The notes below the pieces were generated by a model, which was not told the DNA's origin, did not search any database, and saw only the letters and a program-made list of their open reading frames with translations. From a virus, in the UHGV virus genome UHGV-0286028: DNA of 24,559 nucleotides; one strand, written 5' to 3'. Positions 3,930 to 16,927 of this stretch are shown here, piece after piece (the first letter of the stretch is position 1; each line of letters starts with the position of its first letter). The position numbers and the translations under genes were made by a program.

Positions 3930-4747
3930 ATGTACATATCCTGTTTGCGTGCCCACTCAGGGCGTTTAATGATTTCCACACCGCCCCATTCATCATTTAT
4001 GCGGCATTCGTGATAGGTATTCAGATCCCGGCGGAACAGAGCGTGCCCGGCATCGACATCCGGCGCATCCAGCTCGAACACGCGTACCGGATACCGACCA
4101 CAATCAATGCTTTCGCTCACGGCAAGAAAGAAAAAACCATGCGGCTGACCAGTAACCCTCATTGCGCCTTCGCGGTACATTGCGTCCTGCACGTGGTAGC
4201 GGAATTCCTCGATGTGGCGTGCAAAACGGTCCATATCTGCAACCTTTTTCACGTCGACGATCACGTTGTGCTCGTTCAGCCATTTGTCTGGACGAATGCG
4301 GCACAACTCACCAGTCTCTTCATCATTCCAGTACATTGATGCTTCGCAGTAACCAGGTGCTTCCAGCATCCAGCGTGCCGCCGGGTGAGCCATTGCGCTA
4401 TCACGCATCAGCTCCAGTTTCCGCCACTGCTCGGCATCAAGTACCGTAATCCCCATATCCGCTACATCACGAAGAAATGCTTCTTCGTCAGCTTTACCTT
4501 GTTTCGTCCGACGATCGAACTTCGGTGAAACAATGAAGCGTTTGTCGAATTCTCCAGGCTCCAGAAGCAGACAGTGCAATGCGGTTCCCATATCCAGTGC
4601 AGACTTTTTCTCTTCGTCTTCTGGTGCTGCCTGGACCCATTTAAGAAGCGCCGGATTCTTGGCAACCATGTCCAGTTGCGACTTACTCACGCCGTCACCG
4701 GCGTGGTAGTCTTCGTTGCTGATGTCGAAATAAATTCCCGGTTTCAT
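3926..4747 (-). CDS. PD-(D/E)XK exonuclease (YqaJ / exonuclease VIII-like), recombination partner of RecT
   Basis: 273 aa; N-terminus MKPGIYFDISNEDYHAGDGVSKSQLDM typical of phage PDDEXK exonucleases; ATGA overlap with the upstream gene stop and with the recT start. Confidence 0.75.
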   Translation of the reverse strand: MKPGIYFDISNEDYHAGDGVSKSQLDMVAKNPALLKWVQAAPEDEEKKSALDMGTALHCLLLEPGEFDKRFIVSPKFDRRTKQGKADEEAFLRDVADMGITVLDAEQWRKLELMRDSAMAHPAARWMLEAPGYCEASMYWNDEETGELCRIRPDKWLNEHNVIVDVKKVADMDRFARHIEEFRYHVQDAMYREGAMRVTGQPHGFFFLAVSESIDCGRYPVRVFELDAPDVDAGHALFRRDLNTYHECRINDEWGGVEIIKRPEWARKQDMYI

Positions 4748-5043
4748 GCCGCGTCCCTCTGTCCATCAAGCTGATCCGCCAGATCCCAGCGGGCGATAAT
4801 TGCCATTGCCTCTCGCCGATAGGCATCCATCAGTTCTTCGAACTCAGGGCTGTCTTTAGCAGCCTCCAGTACTTCCTGACGAACGCCTTTGCCTGTTACA
4901 ACGTCAAAAGTTGAGGACAGTTGATGAAGTCGGATGCTCTCAATCAGTTCAACTTGTCGGTCATATAGCTGTTCTGACAGGCGGTAGTCCTTGTCGAATG
5001 CCAGCATGATTTTTTGAAGATTTTTCTGCTGATTAACGTTCAT
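4744..5043 (-). CDS. Hypothetical early protein
   Basis: ATG at 5043 (MNVNQQKN...) preceded by GGAGGG SD; coupled (ATGA) to the exonuclease gene. Confidence 0.5.
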   Translation of the reverse strand: MNVNQQKNLQKIMLAFDKDYRLSEQLYDRQVELIESIRLHQLSSTFDVVTGKGVRQEVLEAAKDSPEFEELMDAYRREAMAIIARWDLADQLDGQRDAA

Positions 5044-11725: not shown

Positions 11726-12321
11726 TGATGCCTGCTGAACCTAAAACCTATAAACGCAAATCAACGCAATTTAAGCCACTAACAGCAATGCAGGAGGCTT
11801 ATTGCCAGTCATACATCAAAACGCCTGAAAACCAGACTCAGGCAGCGATTAACGCAGGATTCTCCCCAAATACAGCGGCAGTTAAAGCCAGTGTCATGAT
11901 GCGCGATGAACGCATTCAAAAACGGATTGCCGAGTTGATGGAGGAGCGCAACAAACGAATGCGCGTCAGTGCTGATTACGTTCTCATGCGCCTGGTGGAG
12001 ATCGACCAGATGGACGTGATCGACATCCTCAACGACGATGGGAGCCTTAAACCAATCCGTGAGTGGCCGAAAATCTGGCGCACTACGCTTAGTGGCTTTG
12101 ATCTGTCATCGACCATCATGAACATGAACGAGGATTCGATAGAGACAATCCTCAAAAAAATTAAATGGCCTGACAAGGTGAAGAACCTCGAACTGATTGG
12201 TAAGCACGTCGACGTCAACGCATTCAAAGAACGCCTGGATGTTAATGTGAATGTGACAATTGCTGATCGCATAGCGGCAGCCAGGAAGAGACTGAAAGAA
12301 CGTCAGGATGGCAATCAGTGA
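11725..12321 (+). CDS. Terminase small subunit
   Basis: ATG at 11725 (MMPAEPKTYKRK...); LTAMQEAYCQSYIKTPENQTQAAINAGFSPNTAAVKASVMMRDERIQKRI matches the small-terminase HTH region; stop overlaps the large-subunit start. The ORF-track start 11647 is a TTG inside the terminator. Confidence 0.7.
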   Translation: MMPAEPKTYKRKSTQFKPLTAMQEAYCQSYIKTPENQTQAAINAGFSPNTAAVKASVMMRDERIQKRIAELMEERNKRMRVSADYVLMRLVEIDQMDVIDILNDDGSLKPIREWPKIWRTTLSGFDLSSTIMNMNEDSIETILKKIKWPDKVKNLELIGKHVDVNAFKERLDVNVNVTIADRIAAARKRLKERQDGNQ

Positions 12322-13793
12322 CAGATACAGCGTTATCTCCTGAAGAGCAGTTAATCGAGGATATTGCAGGGTTCACTCACGATCCGCTTGGCTATGCCCT
12401 CTATGCGTTCCCGTGGGGGGAAGAGGGTACTGAACTGGCATATGCTACCGGCCCACGTCAGTGGCAGGCTGATGCGTTCCGAGAGATACGTGATCACCTG
12501 CAGAATCCAGAGACGCGCTATCAGCCGCTTATGCTGGCACGCGCTTCTGGTCACGGTATTGGTAAATCCGCATTCATCTCAATGCTGATCAACTGGGGCA
12601 TGTCCACTTGCGAGGATTGTAAGGTCGTGGTGACCGCCAACACCGACAACCAGCTACGAACGAAGACCTGGCCGGAAATTATCAAGTGGTCGAACCTTGC
12701 TATCACGAAAGACTGGTTTACCTGTACCGCTACCGCGATGTACAGCAATGACCCTGGGCACGACAAGCGGTGGCGTGCTGACGCAATACCCTGGTCTGAG
12801 CACAACACTGAGGCGTTCGCCGGACTACACAACGAGCGCAAACGCATCATCGTGGTGTTTGATGAAGCGTCGAACATTGCGGATCTGGTGTGGGAAGTTG
12901 CCGAAGGTGCGCTAACGGACGAAGACACTGAGATTATCTGGGTGGCGTTCGGAAACCCGACGCGTAATACCGGACGTTTCCGTGAATGTTTCCGCAAGTA
13001 TAAACACCGCTGGAAAACTGCGCAGATTGACAGTCGGACGGTGGAAGGTACCAACAAACAGCAGTTGCAGAAATGGGTTGATGACTACGGGGAAGACAGC
13101 GACTTCGTTAAAATCCGTGTGCGTGGCATATTCCCTGATGCATCTGAATTGCAGTTTATCCCTACCGGTCTTACTGACGAGGCAATGAAACGGGTGGTAA
13201 CCGCTGCGCAGGTTGCACATGCTCCGGTGATAATCGGCGTTGACCCGGCATACTCCGGCGTTGATGACGCTGTGATATACCTGCGGCAGGGGCTACACAG
13301 TAAGGTGCTGTGGACTGGCAACAAGACTACCGACGATCTGATTATGGCGAAGCGTATCGCTGACTTTGAAGACCAGTATCAGGCTGACGCGGTGTTCATC
13401 GACTTCGGTTACGGAACCGGTTTGAAGTCAATCGGTGACGGCTGGGGTCGTACATGGCAACTTGTTCCGTTCGGTGGCGCGTCTACTGACCCGCAGATGC
13501 TTAACAAGCGTGGGGAGATGTTCAACTCATGCAAGACATGGCTGAGGCTCGGCGGCATGCTGGATGACCGGGAAACAGCGGACGACCTGTCGACGGCAGA
13601 GTACAAAGTTCGCGTGGACGGTAAAATCGTTATCGAACCGAAGGAAGATATCAAAGAGCGACTTGGGCGTTCGCCGGGTAAAGGCGATGCGCTACTGCTG
13701 ACGTTTGCTTTCCCTGTGTCGAAGCGTCTGCGAATTCCTGGGCAGCAGAACCAGCAAGGCAAGGCCATCACAGATTATGACCCGTATGCTTAA
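12318..13793 (+). CDS. Terminase large subunit
   Basis: 491 aa; N-terminal ATPase region with P-loop-like GHGIGKSAF and acidic VVFDEAS (Walker B-like); C-terminal nuclease-like region (IGVDPAYSG ... FIDFGYG); position after the small subunit. Confidence 0.88.
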   Translation: MTDTALSPEEQLIEDIAGFTHDPLGYALYAFPWGEEGTELAYATGPRQWQADAFREIRDHLQNPETRYQPLMLARASGHGIGKSAFISMLINWGMSTCEDCKVVVTANTDNQLRTKTWPEIIKWSNLAITKDWFTCTATAMYSNDPGHDKRWRADAIPWSEHNTEAFAGLHNERKRIIVVFDEASNIADLVWEVAEGALTDEDTEIIWVAFGNPTRNTGRFRECFRKYKHRWKTAQIDSRTVEGTNKQQLQKWVDDYGEDSDFVKIRVRGIFPDASELQFIPTGLTDEAMKRVVTAAQVAHAPVIIGVDPAYSGVDDAVIYLRQGLHSKVLWTGNKTTDDLIMAKRIADFEDQYQADAVFIDFGYGTGLKSIGDGWGRTWQLVPFGGASTDPQMLNKRGEMFNSCKTWLRLGGMLDDRETADDLSTAEYKVRVDGKIVIEPKEDIKERLGRSPGKGDALLLTFAFPVSKRLRIPGQQNQQGKAITDYDPYA

Positions 13794-13878: not shown

Positions 13879-14226
13879 TTATTTCTTGATAATATTTCCA
13901 GACATTGTGCTGGCGTTTCCACCAACAGTTTCGCAGATTACATCTCCAGACATGGTGTTTACATTTCCCAATACATTGGAACAATGGACATCACCAGACA
14001 TAGTTTTCACATAATGTGCATCACCGCTTACAGTCACTGATCCATTTTCAATCTCAACACCTTCCACGCTTCCATTAATTGTTACGTTAATCTGTCCGTC
14101 AAGATTGCTATTTTTTTCGACACCATCAACGATCACTTTTCCATTGTTAATCGTAATATGATGACCAGTGAAGTCTTCTCCGTTGACGCTAACGCTAGCA
14201 CCACGTACGTTATTGATTTTAATCAT
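13879..14226 (-). CDS. Beta-solenoid repeat protein (bactofilin-like), moron
   Basis: 115 aa; internal repeats (TMSGDV x2, TMSGNI; INVTINGSVEGVEIENGSVTVSGD); GAGGA SD 9 nt upstream of the ATG; flanked by its own terminators; opposite strand to the phage operons. Confidence 0.55.
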   Translation of the reverse strand: MIKINNVRGASVSVNGEDFTGHHITINNGKVIVDGVEKNSNLDGQINVTINGSVEGVEIENGSVTVSGDAHYVKTMSGDVHCSNVLGNVNTMSGDVICETVGGNASTMSGNIIKK

Positions 14227-14334: not shown

Positions 14335-14359
14335 AAAAAAAATGCCCGGCGAACCGGGC
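14335..14359 (-). terminator. Rho-independent terminator (minus strand) ending the tRNA transcript
   Basis: Stem GCCCGG (14344-14349) / CCGGGC (14354-14359), loop CGAA; A8 run on plus (14335-14342) = U8 on the minus transcript. Confidence 0.7.
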
Positions 14360-14443
14360 GAACTGGAAGCAATGAGTTATGCCTTCCGTGGCTGTACTGG
14401 TTTACAGCATGAAGTCATCGCAATGGCGTCCTGCTGTAAAAAG

Positions 14444-14479
14444 GGCGGTGATGGTTTCCCTTGAAGGACTATCACCGCC
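14444..14479. repeat. Large inverted repeat / stem-loop in the tRNA 3' trailer
   Basis: GGCGGTGAT (14444-14452) and ATCACCGCC (14471-14479), perfect 9-bp arms with an 18-nt spacer that contains a secondary CCTT/AAGG pairing. Confidence 0.5.
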
Positions 14480-14522
14480 AAGCCCCTGGAACTTCTGGCA
14501 TCACGGTCCTTAGGCGTGATTC

Positions 14523-14599
14523 TGGCGTGGCATGCAGGATTCGAACCTGCGACCAACCGCTTAGAAGACGGTTGCTCTGTCCAACTGAGCTAATGCCAC
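14523..14599 (-). tRNA. tRNA-Arg (anticodon UCU), phage-borne, argU-like
   Basis: 77 nt; I folded the reverse complement by hand: acceptor GTGGCAT/ATGCCAC, D-arm GCTC-AGTTGGACA-GAGC, anticodon stem ACCGT/GCGGT with loop CTTCTAA (U33, UCU, A37), T-arm GCAGG-TTCGAAT-CCTGC, discriminator G, encoded CCA. Confidence 0.9.
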
Positions 14600-14880
14600 A
14601 ACGCTGAGAGCACTTAGCCTGTTAAGGCGCCACACTTTGTCGCGGCTCCATAAATGCTCTCATCGTTGTACCCTCGTCTCTTCCGAGGCGTCACACCGAA
14701 TCGCCGGGATGGTGAATCCCCGTGCGCGGAATAAAACCGCTCGACTTGCACATTCCGGCTACCTGGTTCGTTTGCCCGAGCAAGGGAGGGTGCCCCTTAA
14801 ACGTATCCAGACCGCTATCGGCGCATGTGCCATACGCCGTACTGCTCAAAATAAAAGCTCACTCCACCTGTTCAATTTAA
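14600..14880 (-). other. Candidate structured non-coding leader upstream of the tRNA (function unknown)
   Basis: About 280 bp with no credible ORF on either strand (the only ORF, 14637-14900 +, has an R/S/H-rich, non-protein-like composition); several local hairpins (GAGAGCA 14606-14612 / TGCTCTC 14655-14661; CCTCG 14672-14676 / CGAGG 14684-14688). Confidence 0.3.
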
Positions 14881-14921
14881 CGACAAGCCAGTCAGGTTAA
14901 TAACCGGAATGAACCATTTGC

Positions 14922-14936
14922 TTACCTGAAAGGTAA
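14922..14936. promoter_or_regulatory. Operator palindrome TTACC-TGAAA-GGTAA upstream of the structural operon
   Basis: Perfect inverted repeat between the tRNA-leader region and the first structural gene. Confidence 0.6.
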
Positions 14937-15026
14937 TAATTCGTGCGTTAAATGTCAACTATCTACGATAAATAAATCATATGTGGTTAAATTGGTAATA
15001 ATTTAATTGCGTACGGAGTCATTGAT

Positions 15027-15233
15027 ATGTGCATGGGTAGCTCACCATCAGTGCCTGCAACACCAGAAGTTCAGGCAGCACCACAGGAGCAGGATGCCGC
15101 CGTTGTTGATGCCCGCGACGAAGAAACTCGTCGCCGTCGCGCTGCTGCTGGTCGTAGTTCTACGCTGCTTACCGGTTCTCAGGGCGACACATCAACCGCT
15201 AATACCAGCGGTAAAACGCTGCTTGGTCAGTAA
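15027..15233 (+). CDS. Small low-complexity virion-associated protein (T7 gp7.3-like position and composition)
   Basis: 68 aa; GGAG SD 8 nt upstream; Ala/Gln/Arg/Ser-rich; sits immediately before the portal gene, as gene 7.3 does in T7. Chosen over the overlapping 15007-15246 ORF. Confidence 0.4.
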   Translation: MCMGSSPSVPATPEVQAAPQEQDAAVVDARDEETRRRRAAAGRSSTLLTGSQGDTSTANTSGKTLLGQ

Positions 15234-15247
15234 CCGGAGTCATTGAA

Positions 15248-16927
15248 ATGGCGGAAACAACTAAAGAGCGATTGAACAAACAGTTCGCACAACTTGAAAG
15301 CGAGCGTCAGTCGTTCGAGCCGCACTGGCGCGAGTTGAGTGATTACATCAACCCGCGTGGTTCCCGCTTTCTGACTTCTGAGGTCAACCGTAACGATCGA
15401 CGCAATACACGCATTATTGATTCGACCGGGACTATGGCGGCGCGCACTCTCGCCAGCGGCATGATGTCAGGCATCACAAGCCCCGCGCGTCCGTGGTTTC
15501 GCCTGGCTACGCCAGATCCTGAAATGATGGATTATGGCCCTGTTAAGTTGTGGCTTGAGGCGGTGCAGAACCGCATGAACGATATGTTCAATAAGTCGAA
15601 TCTCTATCAGTCGCTGCCGCAGTTATACGGAAGCCTCGGCACATACAGCACTGCCGCAATGGCGGTGCTGGAGGATGACGAGGACATCATTCGTACAATG
15701 CCATTCCCGATAGGAAGTTACTACCTGGCTAACTCACCTCGTGGCAGTGTGGACACCTGTTTTCGCAAGTTCTCTATGACTGTTCGTCAGCTTGTTCAGG
15801 AGTTCGGACTAAATAACGTCAGCGAATCCGTAAAAAGCATGTGGGAAAGCGGCACCTACGAGAAGTGGATTGAAGTGATGCATTCGGTTTACCCGAACAT
15901 TGACCGCGATACATCGAAGCTGGATAGCAAGAACAAGCCATTCAAATCGGTTTATTACGAGGTTGGTGGCGATAACGACAAGTTGTTGCGTGAGTCCGGA
16001 TTCGATGAGTTTCCAATTATGGCTCCGCGCTGGGAAGTTAACGGCGAAGATGTTTATGGATCATCATGCCCGGGTATGCTGGCGCTTGGACCTGTTAAGG
16101 CATTGCAGCTTCTCCAGAAGCGCAAGTCGCAGTTGATTGATAAAGCCACCAATCCGCCGATGGTTGCTCCGACTTCCCTCAAGAATCAGCGCGCCTCCCT
16201 TCTTCCTGGCGACATCACGTATATCGATCAGATTACTGGTCAGGATGGTTTCAGGCCTGCTTATCTGGTTAACCCCAGTACAGCAGATTTGGTGGCAGAC
16301 ATTCAGGACACTCGTCAAATCATTAACAGCGCCTACTTTGTCGATCTGTTCATGATGTTGCAGAACATCAATACCCGCTCGATGCCTGTTGAAGCAGTGA
16401 TCGAAATGAAAGAAGAAAAACTTCTGATGTTGGGGCCGGTTCTGGAGCGTCTGAACGACGAATGTCTTAATCCTCTCATTGACCGCGCTTTCTCGATGAT
16501 GGTGCGTAAAAACATGCTGCCGCCACCGCCTGACGCGATGGAAGGTATGCCCCTGAAGGTCGAATACATTTCCGTCATGGCTCAGGCGCAGAAGTCTATC
16601 GGCCTGTCCAGTCTGGCGTCTACGGTCAACTTCATTGGTCAACTTGCGCAAGCGAAACCAGAAGCTCTCGACAAACTCAACGTTGATCAGGCGATCGATG
16701 CATTCGCTGATATGTCCGGAGTGTCTCCAACCGTCATTGTTCCGCAGGAACAGGTTGAGCAGGCTCGCCAGCAACGGGCACAGCAACAACAGCAGCAACA
16801 AATGATGGCGATGGGGATGGCGGCGGCACAGGGGGCCAAGACGCTAAGCGAAGCTAAAACTTCGGATCCGAGTGTGTTGTCAGCTATGGCGAATGCAGTT
16901 AGTGGTCAGGGTGGGCAATCACAATGA
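15248..16927 (+). CDS. Portal (head-to-tail connector) protein, T7 gp8-like
   Basis: 559 aa, first large gene after the terminase; Gln/Ala/Met-rich C-terminal tail (QQQQQQMMAMGMAAAQG) resembling podovirus connector C-termini; GGAG SD. Confidence 0.78.
   Translation: MAETTKERLNKQFAQLESERQSFEPHWRELSDYINPRGSRFLTSEVNRNDRRNTRIIDSTGTMAARTLASGMMSGITSPARPWFRLATPDPEMMDYGPVKLWLEAVQNRMNDMFNKSNLYQSLPQLYGSLGTYSTAAMAVLEDDEDIIRTMPFPIGSYYLANSPRGSVDTCFRKFSMTVRQLVQEFGLNNVSESVKSMWESGTYEKWIEVMHSVYPNIDRDTSKLDSKNKPFKSVYYEVGGDNDKLLRESGFDEFPIMAPRWEVNGEDVYGSSCPGMLALGPVKALQLLQKRKSQLIDKATNPPMVAPTSLKNQRASLLPGDITYIDQITGQDGFRPAYLVNPSTADLVADIQDTRQIINSAYFVDLFMMLQNINTRSMPVEAVIEMKEEKLLMLGPVLERLNDECLNPLIDRAFSMMVRKNMLPPPPDAMEGMPLKVEYISVMAQAQKSIGLSSLASTVNFIGQLAQAKPEALDKLNVDQAIDAFADMSGVSPTVIVPQEQVEQARQQRAQQQQQQQMMAMGMAAAQGAKTLSEAKTSDPSVLSAMANAVSGQGGQSQ

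Follow-up and report, generated by a model that had tools for sequence, protein, structure and literature searches.

A conserved, pseudoknotted RNA element in repressor-controlled operons of temperate phages of Enterobacterales

GOLLD and ROOL are large structured RNAs borne by phages and prophages, often beside tRNA genes. Species 1 and 2 of phage T4 are stable RNAs of phage tRNA clusters, one end of which is set by RNase P cleavage at a tRNA. The boxB loop of lambda nutL is GAAGA, and phage HK022 uses put, unlike the Nus-dependent mEp phages. The put RNA is about 70 nt long and has two stem-loops, and putL of HK022 lies just downstream of PL (PMC9378689).

The element described here resembles the put RNA of HK022 and the putL-like RNA of HK639 in being a structured RNA that opens the early transcript just past a repressor-controlled PL, in lambdoid phages without an N gene. 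It differs from put, with its two stem-loops and short triplex, in having five helices and a pseudoknot in a core of about 180 nt, and P6 besides. HK022 has putL and putR, whereas the element is present as a single copy in loci spanning cro to cII, with none in the PR operon, and, unlike put, it also occurs apart from any PL, namely in Uetakeviruses and P1. Put binds the zinc-binding domain of the beta' subunit of RNA polymerase and needs no protein factors to suppress termination in cis; polymerase binding and antitermination in the manner of put are predictions for this element. The likeness to lambda nut is that of the PL-leader position and of P5, a short GC-rich hairpin whose purine-rich loop, GAAGAGA, is comparable to the GAAGA of boxB. 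However, the element is far larger, and the order of its parts and its paired boxA-like run do not fit: the boxB of nut is a GNRA-like pentaloop located after boxA, whereas the P5 loop has seven nucleotides and the boxA-like run lies 3' of P5. Like GOLLD and ROOL, the element is phage-borne, highly structured and often adjacent to a tRNA, but it is much smaller and belongs to Enterobacterales rather than to Firmicutes or lake metagenomes. It can be set, by description, beside T4 species 1 and 2 as a non-tRNA structured RNA co-transcribed with phage tRNAs; unlike these, most members of its family have no tRNA nearby.

Layout of the locus in the window

The window, meaning the whole stretch of 24,559 nt that was analysed (virus genome UHGV-0286028), is a Uetakevirus of the phiV10/TL-2011b type (98.6% identity across 851 nt). 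The genes for the large terminase (12318-13793) and the portal protein (15248-16927) flank a block on the opposite strand, whose order is promoter, palindrome, leader of about 80 nt, RNA element, tRNA-Arg, two terminator-like hairpins and an ORF of 115 aa (Table 1). The region between 14600 and 14880, singled out by the initial annotation as a candidate structured RNA, consists of leader, core and P6.

Transcription from the minus-strand promoter is predicted to start near 14923, and SPN1S has the identical TTGACA-17-TACCTT arrangement (alignment A1). This promoter was absent from the output of a simple, strict promoter scan because its -10 hexamer fits TATAAT at just three of six positions. 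The site homologous to the promoter is annotated in the epsilon15 record as a binding region for repressor ('repressor; lysogeny') and IHF. Conservation of the 5' leader is restricted to Uetakeviruses. The epsilon15 record also places an 'RNaseIII' processing site in the stretch homologous to this leader.

Table 1. Features of the minus-strand block in the window (positions count from the first letter of the window)
Feature	Position	Strand	Remarks
Putative sigma-70 promoter	14930-14958	-	-35 TTGACA 14958-14953, 17-nt spacer, -10 TACCTT 14935-14930; by sequence reading
Operator-like palindrome	14922-14936		TTACCT-TTC-AGGTAA, reading TTACCTTTCAGGTAA on the minus strand; overlaps the -10; from sequence
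5' leader	14842-14923	-	Predicted start to core; includes hairpin 14907-14888
Conserved RNA core, about 178 nt	14664-14841	-	Covariance model R1: 144 bits, E = 4.5e-43 (14 sources searched)
P1 hairpin	14819-14839	-	CGGCGUAU-GGCAC-AUGCGCCG; 14839-14832 with 14826-14819
P2	14763-14810	-	Base 14810-14808 with 14765-14763; inner 14804-14800 with 14772-14768; variable tip
Invariant 19-mer	14745-14763	-	GGUAGCCGGAAUGUGCAAG
P3 variable hairpin	14726-14740	-	Here GCGG-UUUUAUU-CCGC; read from alignments
P4 hairpin	14706-14720	-	GGGA-UUCACCA-UCCC; 14720-14717 with 14709-14706
H-type pseudoknot	14694-14714	-	P4 loop CACC 14714-14711 with GGUG 14697-14694
P5 hairpin	14672-14688	-	CCUCG-GAAGAGA-CGAGG; 14688-14684 with 14676-14672
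P6	14599-14668	-	CAACGAUGAGAGCAUU (14668-14653) with AGUGCUCUCAGCGUUG (14614-14599); encloses variable insert
tRNA-Arg(UCU)	14523-14599	-	ARAGORN; Rfam tRNA 71 bits; downstream cargo
Two terminator-like hairpins past the tRNA	14336-14479	-	14479-14444 then CUUUUU; 14359-14344 then U-run
115-aa cargo ORF	13879-14226	-	3' of terminators; PHROG 3163, function not assigned

The untranslated tRNA-Arg and the terminator-like hairpins separate the RNA element from the next gene. The shorter of the two hairpins (14359-14344) was given by the scan, while the longer one was recognized by reading the sequence and was also seen in homologues by a custom scan. The same scan listed no minus-strand promoter for the 115-aa ORF.

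Three further observations concern the neighbourhood. The trailer of about 190 nt located 3' of tRNA-Arg (14336-14522, minus strand) is kept in phiV10-like phages, and its hairpin at 14359-14344 is a canonical terminator. In locus L096 and some other relatives, the long hairpin has a loop that exactly matches the reverse complement of the one in the window, which suggests an inversion across the palindromic stem of this hairpin. On the plus strand, just ahead of the portal gene, there is a small conserved ORF (15027-15233; PHROG 831) that begins with MCMGSS and has the look of a lipoprotein.

Covariation and fold of the RNA

The covariation analysis proposed by the initial annotation was strongly positive. 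Alignment A3, of 48 diverse cores, gave covariance model R1, and 85 hits, of which 75 are distinct, were then re-aligned (alignment A4). In these 75 distinct homologues, 94.6% of the cells of the proposed structure pair, and changes on both sides of a pair were found at 17 pairs and in 248 cells. Shuffling of the columns gave 66±12 such cells, with 0 of 500 shuffles reaching 248, and the controls with a slid register gave 14 to 42. The folding energy of the window sequence alone was just mildly unusual (z = -2.2); the decisive evidence for a structured RNA comes from more than 150 homologous loci, through their conservation and covariation, rather than from the folding energy of a single sequence. 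The RNA strand is the minus strand, because the frequent G.U pairs would be A.C mismatches on the other one. The suspicion of a structured RNA was thus borne out by conservation and covariation, on the strand of the tRNA, and the local inverted repeats on which it had been based are real, being helices kept by compensatory changes. Positions 14599-14841 (minus strand) almost certainly form a non-coding structured RNA that is a member of a real, uncatalogued RNA family.

The core is about 165-185 nt long, individual members being of 152-184 nt, and it contains hairpins P1, P2, P3, P4 and P5, an H-type pseudoknot and about 45 invariant nucleotides, most of which are unpaired. Pair 7:19 of P1 (alignment A4) is GC in 37 sequences, AU in 36 and GU in 2, while the U.G pair of P1 that we term invariant was present in 72 of 75 sequences. 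RNAalifold by itself proposed that the invariant GCACAU pairs with AUGUGC and so replaces the top of P1; this was set aside, and the local P1 hairpin was retained because its 7:19 pair covaries. At the base of P2 (columns 33:93), 52 CG and 22 UA pairs were found, and all five inner pairs were changed on both sides. Both-side changes were likewise found at three of the four pairs of P4, where 99% of cells are paired, and at four of the five stem pairs of P5, the loop of which is conserved. The initial annotation had considered GGGA-TTCACCA-TCCC as its best candidate for a T-arm; this is the P4 hairpin, whose loop CACC pairs with the downstream GGUG to form the pseudoknot. Columns 147:167 of the pseudoknot are CG in 65 sequences and AU in 9, with zero exceptions, and this pair was CG in 78 and AU in 22 in a separate scan (n=100 variants). 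P3 varies in length and sequence by lineage and lies outside the modelled structure.

No difference in the 19-mer was seen among the 11 homologues of alignment A1, which BLAST had retrieved without reference to it. The loci obtained by probing with the 19-mer are no test of its invariance, because they were selected by an exact match to it. Its GUGC and the GCAC of the P1 loop (columns 12-15 with 106-109) are paired in 99% of cells with zero variation; a four-base pairing between them may exist, covariation being uninformative where both strands are invariant.

What follows P5 is modular and depends on the lineage, P6, other modules or a convergent terminator being found there. P6 abuts the tRNA in the window, its final G being nucleotide +1 of the tRNA. 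A strict pattern found P6 in at least 97 of 157 loci. Many compensatory variants are seen among 24 distinct pairs of its strands, and the insert has 9 to 98 nt. In SPN1S (L008 1412-1429 and 1467-1481, minus strand) this insert contains the T-arm-like hairpins CUGGUUCAAUUCCAG and GGUCAGUUCGAUUCGGAC, and such hairpins are also present in loci L015, L159 and L106; they may have been left by former tRNA genes or be tRNA-like features. In mEp390 (L012, about 1390-1495), P5 is followed, in place of P6, by a conserved module (..AUCAGCCAUUCAC..GCUUAGCGGGACUGGAAGAGUUACCACUUGGAGACGGUCC..) in which GGAAGAG occurs again, and the same module replaces P6 in PAT1 (L007) and in L038, L039, L067 and L135.

We also considered whether the region could be something other than an RNA, i.e. 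a small protein gene (the 87-aa ORF at 14637-14900, plus strand), a decayed tRNA or a DNA-level site, which is very improbable. The initial annotation had seen no plausible coding frame on either strand. Mechanical ORFs of up to 87 aa are in fact present in 14600-14880 (87 and 52 aa on the plus strand, 52 and 45 aa on the minus strand), but none is conserved across 111 variants. A plus-strand ORF across the element is open in 77 loci, and some records carry annotated CDSs there, such as the hypothetical proteins of mEp460 and Ayreon, which speaks for a gene. Against this, the frame is not conserved: indels between the invariant blocks of the 111 variants occur in all lengths modulo 3, and the open antisense frame lies in all three phases relative to the 19-mer (40/34/32). 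The 19-mer also lacks synonymous variation in the 11 independently found homologues, the compensatory changes and strand-specific G.U pairs are those of an RNA, and the ORF has a PHROG match too poor to be significant (E = 0.0013 across 21 aa). This frame analysis ruled out a protein gene on both strands, and the cluster of 77 ORFs is a by-product of nucleotide conservation. By the same analysis, the gene calls over the element in mEp460 (mEp460_037, L001 2934-3302), Ayreon (L160 3061-3180) and Tyrion (gp54) are spurious. A site acting as DNA (pac, att or operator) was ruled out by the strand-specific G.U pairs and by the unrelated genomic positions of the element. ARAGORN and the Rfam tRNA model found tRNA-Arg alone, at 14523-14599, so that a second tRNA or a pseudo-tRNA was rejected, in agreement with the failed attempt of the initial annotation to fold one.

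The Rfam search that had also been proposed was run and gave zero family matches on the element: with Rfam 15, there was no match to the element at the gathering score, or at E <= 10 in the window, and none to the element in five diverse homologues at E <= 1. GOLLD and ROOL are presumably among the Rfam 15 families, none of which matches the element at E <= 10. The models that scored elsewhere in these searches were C4, isrK, YrlA and tmRNA. In mEp460 (L001 5351-5539), isrK (67 bits) and C4 antisense RNA (84 bits) lie beside the gene for the Rha antirepressor, an arrangement that represents a P1-type immI module carried by a lambdoid phage and has no relation to the element. A text search of the literature with the invariant sequence returned nothing relevant, and nothing about the element was found in the literature on P1 ban, phage transcriptomes and N-independent lambdoid phages.

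Distribution and genomic setting of the element

The results of the BLAST searches showed that 14653-14840 is a module common to unrelated phages. It is carried by other Uetakeviruses, in the same slot, by the lambdoid phages mEp460, cdtI, 2H10, Ayreon, mEp390 and Stx2c and Stx2a phages, by P1, P7, D6, SJ46 and RCS47 of the P1 group, by Klebsiella phage SopranoGao and by one phage deposited as a Stenotrophomonas phage. The invariant 19-mer GGTAGCCGGAATGTGCAAG, used as a probe, was found in at least 120 viral contigs and 24 genome contigs, and the matches with a named host were all in Enterobacterales. The remaining two matches were in MAGs: one is a chance match unconfirmed by the covariance model, and the other is on a 1.7-kb contig that is probably mis-binned. 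The element was detected by BLAST in 1840 of 5426 complete E. coli genomes (about 34%), at up to four places per genome, with no annotated feature under the matches among those listed, and on 582 plasmids, nearly all of which are P1-like phage-plasmids of about 90-100 kb.

No second copy was found in the window or in PR operons. Elsewhere, locus L029 has two same-strand copies about 650 nt apart (3992-4154 and 4799-4959), the downstream one of which is altered at otherwise invariant positions (19-mer, GGUC and UGGCG) and looks like a decaying tandem duplicate. Epsilon15 (L004 2463-2536) retains just 74 nt of the element (38 bits), which cover P1 and the beginning of P2, and lacks a tRNA.

The commonest home of the element is the PL leader of lambdoid phages. 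In 63 of 132 viral loci, the element is preceded on its own strand by a gene for a CI-type S24 repressor, the end of which is about 100-150 nt away, and a short HTH repressor occupies the upstream position in a further 6; the distance from repressor to element over these 63+6 loci is about 100-250 nt. The 132 loci also include 42 of Uetakevirus type and 17 of P1 type, and 59 of the 132 are not lambdoid. Promoter-like sites peak 40-60 nt upstream of P1 (0.43 per 200 nt versus 0.11 in controls). The Ayreon record gives the order cI terminator, promoter and element, the latter two separated by about 50 nt, with a terminator within the downstream operon, and in N-less lambdoid phages the element follows PL by about 50 nt, just downstream of cI. 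In lambdoid phages, the element therefore occupies the 5' leader of the PL transcript, which is the place of lambda nutL and HK022 putL. In P1, it belongs to the ban operon, which C1 controls, and lies between trnI and ban, just upstream of the latter, so that its position in P1, as in SopranoGao, is operon-internal or distal rather than promoter-proximal. In all three phage types, the element is under a promoter or operon held off by the master repressor of the prophage and is therefore an immediate-early RNA, made at once on infection or induction.

A tRNA is adjacent on the same strand in about 50 of 132 viral loci (about 40%), either tRNA-Arg(UCU) downstream or tRNA-Ile(CAU) upstream; P1 has tRNA-Ile(CAU) upstream of the element and not downstream. 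For about 60% of the homologous loci, no tRNA gene lies closer than 600 nt. The initial annotation had taken the region for a tRNA leader. The RNA does lie here between an operator-controlled promoter and the tRNA and would therefore be the 5' part of the tRNA transcript, but it is not tRNA-specific. Adjacency to a tRNA is frequent without being defining, and the element is an autonomous module; the suspicion of a structured RNA was right, while the tRNA-leader reading was too narrow, and the function is what we infer below.

The gene in the cargo slot differs by phage, being of PHROG 3163 in the window, Phage_gp49_66 in epsilon15 and DUF551 in Tyrion. In Klebsiella phage ST512-KPC3phi13.3 (L009 635-1156), a Tad2-like (PF11195) anti-Thoeris gene occupies the slot 3' of the element and tRNA-Arg.

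Candidate functions of the immediate-early RNA

Our best single guess, put forward tentatively, casts the element as a leader RNA that would act in cis to protect RNA polymerase against termination, as a positional analogue of HK022 put. The nascent RNA would act in cis on the transcribing polymerase, alone or with host factors, and the polymerase would become resistant to both Rho-dependent and intrinsic termination. Transcription could then run through untranslated cargo, here tRNA-Arg and the two terminator-like hairpins, into the downstream early genes, and the role proposed is that of put RNA in HK022 and of nut and N in lambda. This cis-acting antitermination or anti-Rho leader was preferred because of the position in the PL leader, the failure to find N, and the untranslated tRNA and terminator-like hairpins. 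The promoter-like peak and the placement of the repressor upstream also count for it. The mEp460 and Stx2a_WGPS2 phages have a Q gene and no annotated N, and no N gene is annotated in the mEp460, WGPS2 or Ayreon records. The first ORFs of PL gave only PHROGs without known function and no Pfam or N-like family, a search that a small or divergent N could escape.

Comparison with put itself gave negative results. With filters off, R1 had no match at HK022 putL or putR, and with default filters it had none in HK639; BLAST with putL found put phages only, and gap-tolerant alignment of the element with put, against dinucleotide shuffles, gave z from -1.1 to +2.2. Strings that seemed homologous to put by eye (ACGGCG...CAUGCGUCG, CGG(C)AAUG(C)UGC and GGAAGAG) were insignificant against dinucleotide shuffles and were rejected. 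The Nus dependence for which the mEp phages were collected (PMC11893012) also speaks against a mechanism like that of put, if mEp460 and mEp390 belong to that collection. The element may work like put, but we do not claim that it is a put RNA.

Several results count against antitermination. Predicted intrinsic terminators are not enriched downstream (0.82 versus 0.90 per 700 nt). Epsilon15 has kept the terminator and the downstream gene while losing most of the element, which is thus dispensable there because terminator and gene persist without most of it. The sites in P1 and SopranoGao are internal or distal in their operons, and the promoter, RNA, tRNA and terminators of the window can also be read as a self-contained non-coding RNA operon. 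On these four grounds, a near-equal rival is a stable trans-acting immediate-early RNA, which is possible although we would not call it probable: it would be processed from the early transcript and would have a host or phage factor as its binding partner. The cut of RNase P at the 5' end of the tRNA would fall exactly at the foot of P6, and one possibility is a decoy for anti-defence or host takeover linked to tRNA biology. Such an RNA would be comparable to other structured RNAs that phages carry beside tRNA genes. The invariant and mostly unpaired nucleotides, together with the pseudoknot, suggest a specific binding surface, and the movement of the module between unrelated phage types, the same-strand tRNA in a part of the viral loci, the T-arm-like hairpins of some P6 inserts and the Tad2-like gene in the cargo slot of the Klebsiella relative are also consistent with action in trans. 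On the other hand, accumulation and processing of such an RNA are predictions, most lambdoid loci are without a terminator or processing signal for its 3' end, so that transcription would enter protein genes, and the strong preference for the PL leader is left unexplained by it.

The position of the element, which is that of nutL, and its P5 hairpin, with its conserved loop and covarying stem, led us to consider a protein-dependent, nut-like antitermination site, in which P5 would be a boxB-like recognition loop for a phage or host protein and Nus factors. We take mEp460 and mEp390, from their names, to be members of the Nus-dependent mEp collection. The phages of this collection were isolated as Nus-dependent (PMC11893012), which would also fit. 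Nevertheless, we find a nut-like site unlikely. An N-like protein was not found among the first PL genes, and about 30-50 nt suffice for a nut site, as against a pseudoknotted fold of 180 nt. We know of no N encoded by P1 or the Uetakeviruses. The boxA-like UGCUCUC is 3' of P5 and paired in P6, and a boxA in this 3' strand was ruled out because the strand varies with compensatory changes; the constraint at UGCUCUC is therefore one of pairing and not of boxA sequence.

The size of the element, its pseudoknot and its many invariant unpaired nucleotides are typical of aptamers, and its 5' leader position would suit a riboswitch-like sensor in the early leader, with the core as an aptamer for a metabolite or a tRNA. 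Complementarities read from the sequence point the same way: UGGCG is complementary to CGCCA-3' of tRNA-Arg(UCU), and AGA occurs within the P5 loop. This is quite improbable, however, as a consistent expression platform is lacking (modules that differ by lineage follow P5, and terminators are inconsistently placed), no Rfam riboswitch matched even at E <= 10, and loci without a nearby tRNA-Arg conserve UGGCG and the P5 loop just as well. As far as we know its hallmark features, none of those of the T-box is apparent in the fold.

More speculatively, the element could represent a new class of immediate-early RNA that either (a) reprograms RNA polymerase or (b) acts in trans on tRNA-Arg(UCU) or on a host defence directed at tRNA; we hold this to be conceivable rather than likely. 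The hints for (b) are the complementarity of UGGCG to CGCCA, the AGA of the P5 loop, the adjacency to tRNAs and the Tad2-like cargo.

The family is outside Rfam and unannotated as RNA in every record examined, and several of its members have been miscalled as hypothetical proteins, although its carriers include P1, Shiga-toxin phages and the phiV10/epsilon15 group, which are among the best-studied temperate phages. Its link to promoters controlled by master repressors places it among the first molecules made on induction or infection. A trans-acting RNA would be a new player in the conflict between phage and host. If (a) is true, the element would add a third kind, with a structure of its own, to the RNAs that reprogram RNA polymerase unaided, and it would explain how the early-left operon runs in the large SfV/cdtI/mEp460/Stx2 group of N-less lambdoid phages. 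If the element is an antiterminator, it would be a second and much larger natural RNA acting on RNA polymerase, and would provide the device for early antitermination that N-less lambdoid phages are missing, among them the Stx2 phages, in which early transcription leads to the release of toxin.
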